DNA from: Escherichia coli
GTDB taxonomy: Bacteria; Pseudomonadota; Gammaproteobacteria; Enterobacterales; Enterobacteriaceae
NCBI RefSeq assembly: GCF_003334355.1
Contig: NZ_QOWP01000007.1
Direction: 5' to 3' (one strand)
Length of the DNA stretch: 64,000 nucleotides
Position numbers and translations under genes: made by a program. This document shows positions 3,732-4,129 of the stretch, piece after piece. Numbering within the stretch: the first letter of the stretch is position 1; every line of letters starts with the position of its first letter. The notes under the pieces were generated by a model. The model was given only the letters and a program-made list of their open reading frames with translations, searched no databases and had not been told where the DNA came from.

Positions 3732-4071
3732 TAGCTAATCAACAAAGCTAAGGTTAGTAATTAAGGAGTTCTCCACGGGTGAGGTGGAGTGCGTGCGCCG
3801 GACACGGGTGAGCATCCGGCACTGACAGTTTACTGAAAGGATATTTCCCTGAAAAGTCAGACCATAACGCGAAAGCGCACGGCGAGGTAGCTGGTTCATA
3901 GATAGCCTGTCGTTAAATTTTCGTCGACCGTGCGCTTCCGGTTGTGGCAACCCGCGAAATGGCGCGGCGGTAAGTATGGCGGGGTTATTCCTTCCCCGTT
4001 GAGGACACCGGGTTGTCAGGTTGACCATACGCTTAAGTGACAACCCCGCTGCAACGCCCTCTGTTATCAAT

Positions 4072-4129
4072 TTTCTGGTGACGTTTGGCGGTATCAGTTT
4101 TACTCCGTGACTGCTCTGCCGCCCTTTTT
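4072..4129 (+). ncRNA. dicF: DicF small RNA (Hfq-dependent; represses ftsZ among other targets)
   Basis: TTTCTGGTGACGTTTGGCGGTATCAGTTTTACTCCGTGACTGCTCTGCCGCCC followed by TTTTT; terminal GC stem plus U-tract; lies between ydfC and dicB as in Qin. Confidence 0.8.

Follow-up and report, generated by a model that had tools for sequence, protein, structure and literature searches.

The put RNAs of phage HK022 bring about a protein-independent suppression of termination in cis via the beta' zinc-binding domain, and the small RNA DicF, a neighbor of the locus considered here, has been under study since 1989. Structurally, put is a V of two stems of ~72 nt with a conserved GGCGGGUUCAGGAUGAACGGCAAU apex (PMC9378689). 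For DicF, it is established that the 5' end (4072/4073 in our numbering) is made by RNase E (PMC5069750, PMC9438474), that the 3' end of a 72-nt form has been reported (PMC5069750), and that dicB transcription starts from a promoter upstream of ydfA and passes the DicF terminator (PMC5069750), the region ahead of dicF being described merely as a "long untranslated region" (PMC5069750). Our analysis places in this leader of dicBF a conserved RNA domain of ~115 nt (3941-4055, plus strand) built as a four-way junction with a pseudoknot.

The window (the whole stretch of 64,000 nt of Escherichia coli DNA that was analyzed) includes the early-left operon of a Qin-like prophage, in which dicA (2622-3029) is followed by ydfA, ydfB and ydfC (3513-3731). 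From the end of ydfC at 3731, a run of 341 untranslated nucleotides extends to DicF (4073-4124; the interval flagged for follow-up was 3732-4129), after which come a 175-nt leader, dicB (4299-4487), ydfD and a recE-like ORF of 823 aa. The latter (exonuclease VIII, 4769-7240) is intact and lies 3' of ydfD, as it does in Tritos and mEp460. The flagged 398-nt stretch, DicF included, is 100% identical to E. coli CFSAN064036 and has at least a partial match in 4,328 of the 5,426 complete E. coli genomes; at least 80% of its length is present in 3,392 of them, at up to eight places per genome. Among the complete E. coli genomes sampled, RefSeq places no feature under these 398 nt, DicF included.

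A first-pass annotation of this interval, made from the sequence alone, had recognized no credible ORF between ydfC and dicF and had regarded the one listed antisense ORF as unsupported; both statements were borne out. The 341 nt hold no credible ORF, and the 111-aa minus-strand ORF with a TTG start (3735-4070) has no PHROG family and a frame that is not kept: the spacing of two invariant anchors ranges from 36 to 45 nt and falls in all three modulo-3 classes (15, 34 and 36 distinct sequences), while no antisense frame is open across the core in 26 of the 85 distinct homologues. Both observations indicate that the antisense ORF is not a gene. The broader proposition that the conserved feature is not an RNA, being instead a minus-strand protein gene of this kind or a DNA-level site, draws on the several phage records that annotate a 'hypothetical protein' here and on cdtI orf40, which is found in phrog_3651; it is opposed by the same anchor spacing, by the homologues stopped in every antisense frame, and by compensatory changes and an excess of G-U pairs (see below) that fit a plus-strand RNA, and we consider it scarcely credible. 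The 'hypothetical protein' calls lying over the element in many phage records are probably spurious, and the element accounts for several of them. The cdtI ORF itself (L002:2545-3000, minus strand; phrog_3651, of unknown function) is antisense to the conserved RNA element. Small plus-strand ORFs, including an arginine-rich frame of 13-20 aa at ~3784-3825, were considered and rejected, as their frames differ between flavors and they have no PHROG match.

The stretch had further been described as unusually GC-rich with many short inverted repeats. The former is true relative to its immediate neighbors (dicB 36%, ydfC 47.5%) but not relative to the window, where its 52.8% against a mean of 49.6% corresponds to the 73rd percentile of all 341-nt windows; the conserved core (3941-4055) reaches 58.3%. 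The inverted repeats do exceed chance, with 11 complementary 7-mers within 120 nt vs. 2.0 ± 1.8 in dinucleotide shuffles (none of 500 reaching 11) and six complementary 8-mers vs. 0.5 expected. The folding energy is unremarkable (z -2.07 on the plus strand and -3.04 on the minus strand for the whole stretch, -1.3 for the core alone), and thus the evidence for structure comes from the comparison of homologues.

In phage records searched with BLAST, conservation beyond Qin-like elements was confined to the 3' third of the stretch. Phages cdtI, Ayreon and the Stx2c group match query positions 210-332 at 89% identity, and P1 and P7 match positions 221-317 at 78-82%, in both cases between unrelated flanks; Actinobacillus phage vB_Apl-pPE4 also carries the element, and in the P1 record annotators had marked a "dicF-like region" at this place. 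Pattern scans of IMG/VR together with one genome scan yielded 161 copies with ~85 distinct cores, and P1-type plasmids contribute 499 further records. On genome contigs, the loose pattern ATGG-N-CAGGTTGACCATRC returned at least four true members (two from E. albertii, one from Citrobacter sp. FP75 and one P7-type locus); the 5' motif GGCGCGGCGGTAAG, used as the sole pattern, matched mostly unrelated sequences. BLAST with the Actinobacillus phage copy revealed no more Pasteurellaceae members, and the known range is accordingly narrow (Enterobacteriaceae and one Actinobacillus phage). A covariance model (R1) recovers the cdtI, P1 and Actinobacillus copies at 90-140 bits and gives a single match at each locus and a single one in the 64-kb window, with no second copy found in the right operon. 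The Rfam scan proposed by the first-pass annotation gave no family overlapping 3732-4072 in Rfam 15, even at E <= 10, and a match to the DicF model from 4073 only; in the literature searched we found no description of the element.

The element (all coordinates on the plus strand) is closed by helix P0 (3941-3948/4048-4055), which pairs GUUGUGGC with GCUGCAAC. Inside it follow the P1 helix (3952-3956/3963-3967; CCGCG and CGCGG around the loop AAAUGG), P2' (3968-3971/4007-4010; CGGU with ACCG), the variable hairpin P2 (3980-3984/3994-3998) and P3 (4011-4018/4038-4045; GGUUGUCA with UGACAACC), which closes a nearly invariant 19-nt loop at 4019-4037. The pseudoknot joins GUAUGG (3974-3979), located in the internal loop between P2' and P2, to CCAUAC (4025-4030) inside the P3 loop, with 99% of alignment cells paired. 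The same junction was obtained from the alignment with RNAalifold, from the single-sequence minimum-energy fold and by inspection. Two other folds were discarded: an H-type pseudoknot of the P2 loop (UCCU) with GAGGA in J2/3, which is missing from most P2 variants, and a tRNA-like cloverleaf, for which ARAGORN reported nothing in 3600-4400 and no tRNA-clan match appeared at E <= 10.

The first-pass annotation had proposed covariation analysis as a check and had left room for a separate structured RNA function in addition to processing; the comparison found conserved structure, contrary to the refuting outcome that this annotation had named, and the separate structured RNA is now favored by the ~115-nt conserved island, its covarying pairs and its pseudoknot. 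When 29 representatives are aligned with MAFFT, 94.6% of cells are paired, ten pairs have changed on both sides vs. 3.7 ± 1.4 in shuffles (0/500), and partners slid out of register score far worse; the model-fitted alignment gives 97% paired cells and nine such pairs vs. 2.1 in shuffles. Compensation is seen in P0, P2', P2, P3 and the pseudoknot. In P2, at least eight different compensated stems exist among 40 variants (e.g., CGGGG/CCCCG, CUGGG/CCCAG, CGAGG/CCUCG, CCCGGG/CCCGGG and CAGGG/CCCUG). P0 alternates between U-G/G-U, U-A/G-C and A-U among homologues and is swapped in the type found in phage P1 for an unrelated helix, AGCUGUUA/UAAC(G)AGCU; P2' shows a single U-A to C-G exchange; and the phage P1 pseudoknot reads GCAUGG/CCAUGC, i.e., U-A replaced by C-G on both sides, with U-G intermediates also in existence. 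The P1 helix never varies, nor do most of P2' and the pseudoknot, so that covariation provides no test there.

On the plus strand, G-U pairs outnumber A-C mismatches (44 vs. 22), and this excess fits an RNA of the plus strand, which is the known direction of transcription. Taken together, the covariation and the G-U excess point to selection at the RNA level, and a coding function is incompatible with the frame-breaking indels. Invariant positions number about 45 and are found mostly in loops and junctions, as expected of a macromolecule-binding surface. As a separate observation, the P2 loop (3985-3993 in the window) is pyrimidine-rich in nearly all 40 stem variants (UUCCUU, CUCUUU, UUCCUCC) and resembles an anti-Shine-Dalgarno sequence.

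Upstream of the core, the plus strand carries additional modules of more limited distribution. As read from the sequence, the 5' leader (3770-3860) contains three hairpins specific to Qin-like flavors: CUCCAC..GUGGAG (3771-3788), GCCGGA..UCCGGC (3797-3820) and UGAC..GUCA (3823-3859). The block from ~3791 onward recurs in several lambdoid flavors with different upstream genes, and the frames of the leader mini-ORFs, by inspection, are not kept between flavors. Next to the core lies hairpin Px (stem 3870-3882/3928-3940, an inverted repeat of 13 nt, 92% complementary), present in most lambdoid flavors, whose stem is conserved while its apex varies from 29 to 39 nt (50 distinct variants); in one case CACGG/CCGUG is exchanged for CACAG/CUGUG in a compensatory manner, and a G-U intermediate exists. 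The 5' arm of Px (3868-3884) resembles a partial copy of the P1-helix region of the core (3953-3969), a direct repeat of 82% identity, and natural deletions between these repeat copies (L008:1630-1753 and L016:4489-4613) have lost the P0 5' strand and kept the rest together with the terminator. At the base of Px, CCAUAAC (3862-3868) can pair with the P0 5' strand GUUGUGG (3941-3947) in place of the junction closure, and a CAYAAC-like motif recurs upstream in other flavors; in L087, one natural G-to-A substitution within P0 strengthens that helix and disrupts the pairing with CCAUAAC.

On its 3' side, the element is coupled to a terminator. A hairpin with a U run begins 21-40 nt after P3 in 154 of the 159 copies, and the spacer from the element to the first operon terminator measures 12-31 nt (12 nt in cdtI) with a variable sequence. 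These hairpins belong to at least eight types, of which DicF is one and GCCCAUC-UUCG-GGUGGGC of phage P1 is unrelated. With so many hairpin sequences behind the same element, selection acts on the presence of a terminator and not on one particular sequence; what is conserved is thus the pairing-up of element and terminator, not the DicF seed. A DicF-like seed stands between the two in roughly half of the family members, and a search for the seed motif UUUCUGGUGAC with up to two mismatches did not find it there in the cdtI/Stx2c flavor or in the P1 type. In the window, an AU-rich single-stranded spacer (4056-4072), in which RNase E cuts to generate the 5' end of DicF, separates the element from DicF and its intrinsic terminator (4073-4130; hairpin 4087-4123, then the U run). 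The Rfam DicF family RF00039 matches 4073-4124 (76.7 bits, E 6.8e-16, gathering score 48), which leaves the 341 nt upstream outside the model, and the terminator hairpin has an energy of -15.9 kcal/mol, a value obtained for relatives with an identical hairpin sequence.

The view of the stretch as a substrate for RNase III and RNase E could be retained in part. The RNase E cut lies 17 nt past P0 and the stretch does supply the untranslated 5' portion of the DicF precursor, but this is not the whole story, and the RNase III site appears to lie elsewhere, at ~4144. The end of the 72-nt DicF form maps to this position, ~20 nt downstream of the terminator and within the closing stem of a second structured leader (4125-4300, plus strand), which resembles STnc100 (RF02076, 34.4 bits, short of the gathering score of 47) and has a fold z of -4.95 with a closing stem of ~28 bp. 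This location makes it most likely that RNase III cuts downstream of dicF, the long closing stem of the 4125-4300 leader probably being the site. Phage P1 has a homologue of the STnc100-like leader upstream of tciA (L001:4338-4470).

These data bear directly on the explanation that the structure is a scaffold or by-product of DicF biogenesis, which does no more than place or allow cleavage by RNase E, or stabilize an upstream ydfABC fragment, and has no function of its own. The cut 17 nt past P0 in an AU-rich single strand, the DicF-like seed in about half of the family and the treatment of the region as a long untranslated region in the literature all speak for it. However, both the commonest non-Qin flavor (cdtI/Stx2c) and the P1 type keep the element with no DicF seed found and no upstream ORFs to stabilize, the cdtI spacer to the terminator is just 12 nt, the RNase III site is elsewhere, and a cleavage guide would need far less than a pseudoknot and ~45 invariant positions in loops and junctions. 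We regard this explanation as unlikely.

The genomic position of the element is also constant: it is always located downstream of a repressor gene or operator and heads an early operon. In cdtI it comes after cI, and in phage P1 it starts ~30 nt past the -10 box of Pban, a promoter under C1 control. Tritos and mEp460 share the order repressor, small ORFs, element, DicF, dicB, ydfD, recE-like gene, xis and int; in the window, the element lies ~850 nt from the promoter, 3' of three ORFs. The element is a mobile module of repressor-controlled early operons that is shared by lambdoid prophages and phages and by P1-type phage-plasmids. The annotation of the left operons examined includes no N gene, PHROGs gave no antiterminator match, and no arginine-rich motif was found in the small ORFs that were translated. 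In vB_Apl-pPE4 (L003:2600-2720), a duplicate of the element's 3' flank, CCCCGCCACAACAACCCAUGUUGAUUACCUUUUGG, follows the first terminator, and this phage has an E. coli-like immunity region (DicA, YdaT, Kil). Phage cdtI carries at L002:40-228 (minus strand) a C4 antisense RNA (68.4 bits) beside isrK (60 bits), both unrelated to the element.

From the anatomy of the element and its context, we infer a mechanism in which it would act in cis to let RNA polymerase pass the DicF terminator, as an analogue of put with an unrelated fold; we hold this proposal to be plausible, at somewhat less than an even chance. The element would emerge and fold just before the terminator hairpin forms and would then engage the elongation complex, on its own or together with Nus factors of the host. 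As a result, a fraction of polymerases would read through into dicB, ydfD, the recE-like gene, xis and int, and those still stopping would yield the DicF precursor, to be trimmed by RNase E 17 nt past the element. In such a scheme, the element would fill the role that N/nut has in lambda and put RNA in HK022.

Several lines of evidence favor antitermination. The left operons examined have no N gene and yet must pass a terminator of -16 to -21 kcal/mol, and dicB is known to be transcribed through the DicF terminator; the element is complete just before this terminator is transcribed, with its invariant positions in loops and junctions; and no conserved alternative pairing ties it to the varied terminators. 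Likewise, it forms an island of conservation (89% in cdtI/Stx2c and 78-82% in P1/P7, flanks unrelated) that is under selection as RNA, and its architecture with the terminator (154/159) and its place at the head of the early operon are fixed. Antitermination is weakened by the single copy per phage, with none in the right operon; by the ~850 nt and three ORFs between promoter and element in the window; by the lack of a convincing boxA in the window leader and of homology to put; by the regulatory rationale that an always-on antiterminator right before a terminator would need; and by the narrow phylogeny, with the P1 helix, P2' and most of the pseudoknot barely varying.

Two other functions would be compatible with parts of the same evidence. 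A riboswitch-like sensor, in which the junction would serve as an aptamer, recognize some metabolite or ion of the host and gate the early-left operon by host state, has in its favor a classic layout of aptamer followed by terminator and a conserved junction core with a variable peripheral hairpin and a pseudoknot; ligand binding would alter formation of the adjacent terminator, and the genes so controlled would be division inhibitors, recombination and excision. The minimum-energy fold of the whole region, in which CCAUAAC (3862-3868), the alternative partner of the P0 5' strand, is paired and the GGCGGUAAGUAUGG segment is joined to the 3' arm of the DicF terminator, is also in line with a switch. 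Conservation argues otherwise: P0 and the terminator do not overlap, and the 12-31 nt between them vary and constitute in DicF a trans-acting seed; the GGUGG..CCACC terminator compensates internally while the element keeps GGCGGUAAG; the phage P1 terminator is unrelated; and the G-to-A change in L087 improves P0 while breaking the upstream alternative. No Rfam class matches at E <= 10 either. A sensor of this type seems to us quite improbable. An antiterminator formed by GGCGGUAAG of the element and the terminator 3' arm, as suggested by the minimum-energy fold, was rejected for want of conservation across terminator types, the candidate pairing of GGCGGUA with that arm being lost in the GGUGG/CCACC and P1 terminators.

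The second alternative is an RNA acting in trans, i.e., an abundant terminated transcript of ~150-350 nt (element, seed and terminator) that would titrate a host protein or RNA, its 5' domain binding, e.g., via the pyrimidine-rich P2 loop and DicF being its processed 3' end. In phage P1, the Pban start, element and terminator would give a discrete RNA of ~180 nt; the P2 loop keeps an anti-Shine-Dalgarno-like UCCU/CUCC across the 40 stem variants; and there is a precedent in the terminated PR' transcript of Stx phages, which is the small RNA StxS (PMC7547250). Against such a function, a co-directional operon that needs readthrough always follows the element, which in the window is embedded 850 nt into an mRNA and has no known target or partner, and we rate it about as poorly as the sensor.

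Returning to cis antitermination, this reading, if correct, would account for expression of the early-left operon past the DicF terminator in N-less lambdoid phages, with DicF as a by-product of a regulated termination point. Control of readthrough by the element would, more specifically, account for the expression of dicB, recE, xis and int in N-less Qin-like phages, for the presence of a strong terminator inside the operon and for the origin of DicF there, and would add to put a second natural RNA with which to study the effects of nascent RNA on RNA polymerase. That the element constitutes a second class of phage RNA, structurally unrelated to put and borne by P1 and by prophages of much of E. 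coli, that reprograms E. coli RNA polymerase in cis is a more tentative proposition, which we advance with considerable doubt. Should its function prove to be a different one, it would still be a widespread structured RNA motif missing from Rfam 15.

Overall, the element can be compared with several known RNA systems. With respect to DicF (RF00039) and the biogenesis of small RNAs from 3' UTRs or within operons, it is the 5' part of the DicF precursor, with the RNase E cut 17 nt further on, but it lies outside the Rfam DicF model and is conserved where the DicF seed is absent. With transcriptional riboswitches it shares a covarying junction plus pseudoknot, a variable peripheral stem and an intrinsic terminator directly downstream, and it differs from them in matching no Rfam class, in offering no ligand clue in the downstream genes and in showing no conserved overlap of terminator and antiterminator. 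Like nutL, on which N acts in lambda, it occupies the head of the PL operon; unlike nutL, it is a complex RNA of ~115 nt vs. a boxB hairpin of 15 nt, with no N-like gene annotated or detected. A boxA (GCUCUUUA-like, up to one mismatch) was not found on the plus strand of 3029-4300. Separately, we note a boxA-like UGCUCU(U/C)(U/A) in the 10 nt directly 5' of P0 in three flavors (L083, L026, L152 and relatives), the corresponding place in the window (3931-3940) reading GUGCGCUUC, paired within Px. Phage mEp460 is one that we take to belong to the mEp phage collection. The members of this collection were isolated as Nus-dependent phages (PMC11893012).

The remaining comparison is with put-type systems, for which we considered HK022 putL/putR, HK639, HK75 and phiEt88. 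In sequence, the two RNAs are unconnected: Smith-Waterman comparison with six put RNAs remained at chance level (p 0.08-0.86 against shuffles), model R1 had no match to HK022 putL/putR at E <= 10 with filters off, and the colinear matches seen by eye (CGCGAAAUGGCGCGG, ACCAUACGC and CGGGUUGUCAGGUUGACC) were attributed to chance on the basis of shuffled alignments. The element also differs in being a four-way junction with a pseudoknot present in one copy, in contrast to the put sites at both putL and putR in HK022. Its setting is nonetheless that of put, i.e., a structured RNA just 3' of a repressor-controlled early promoter and ahead of terminators in N-less lambdoid phages. Its size is near that of the annotated 126-nt putL-like RNA of HK639, and both HK639 and phiEt88 carry put RNA in the very same slot, between the repressor gene and the early-left genes.
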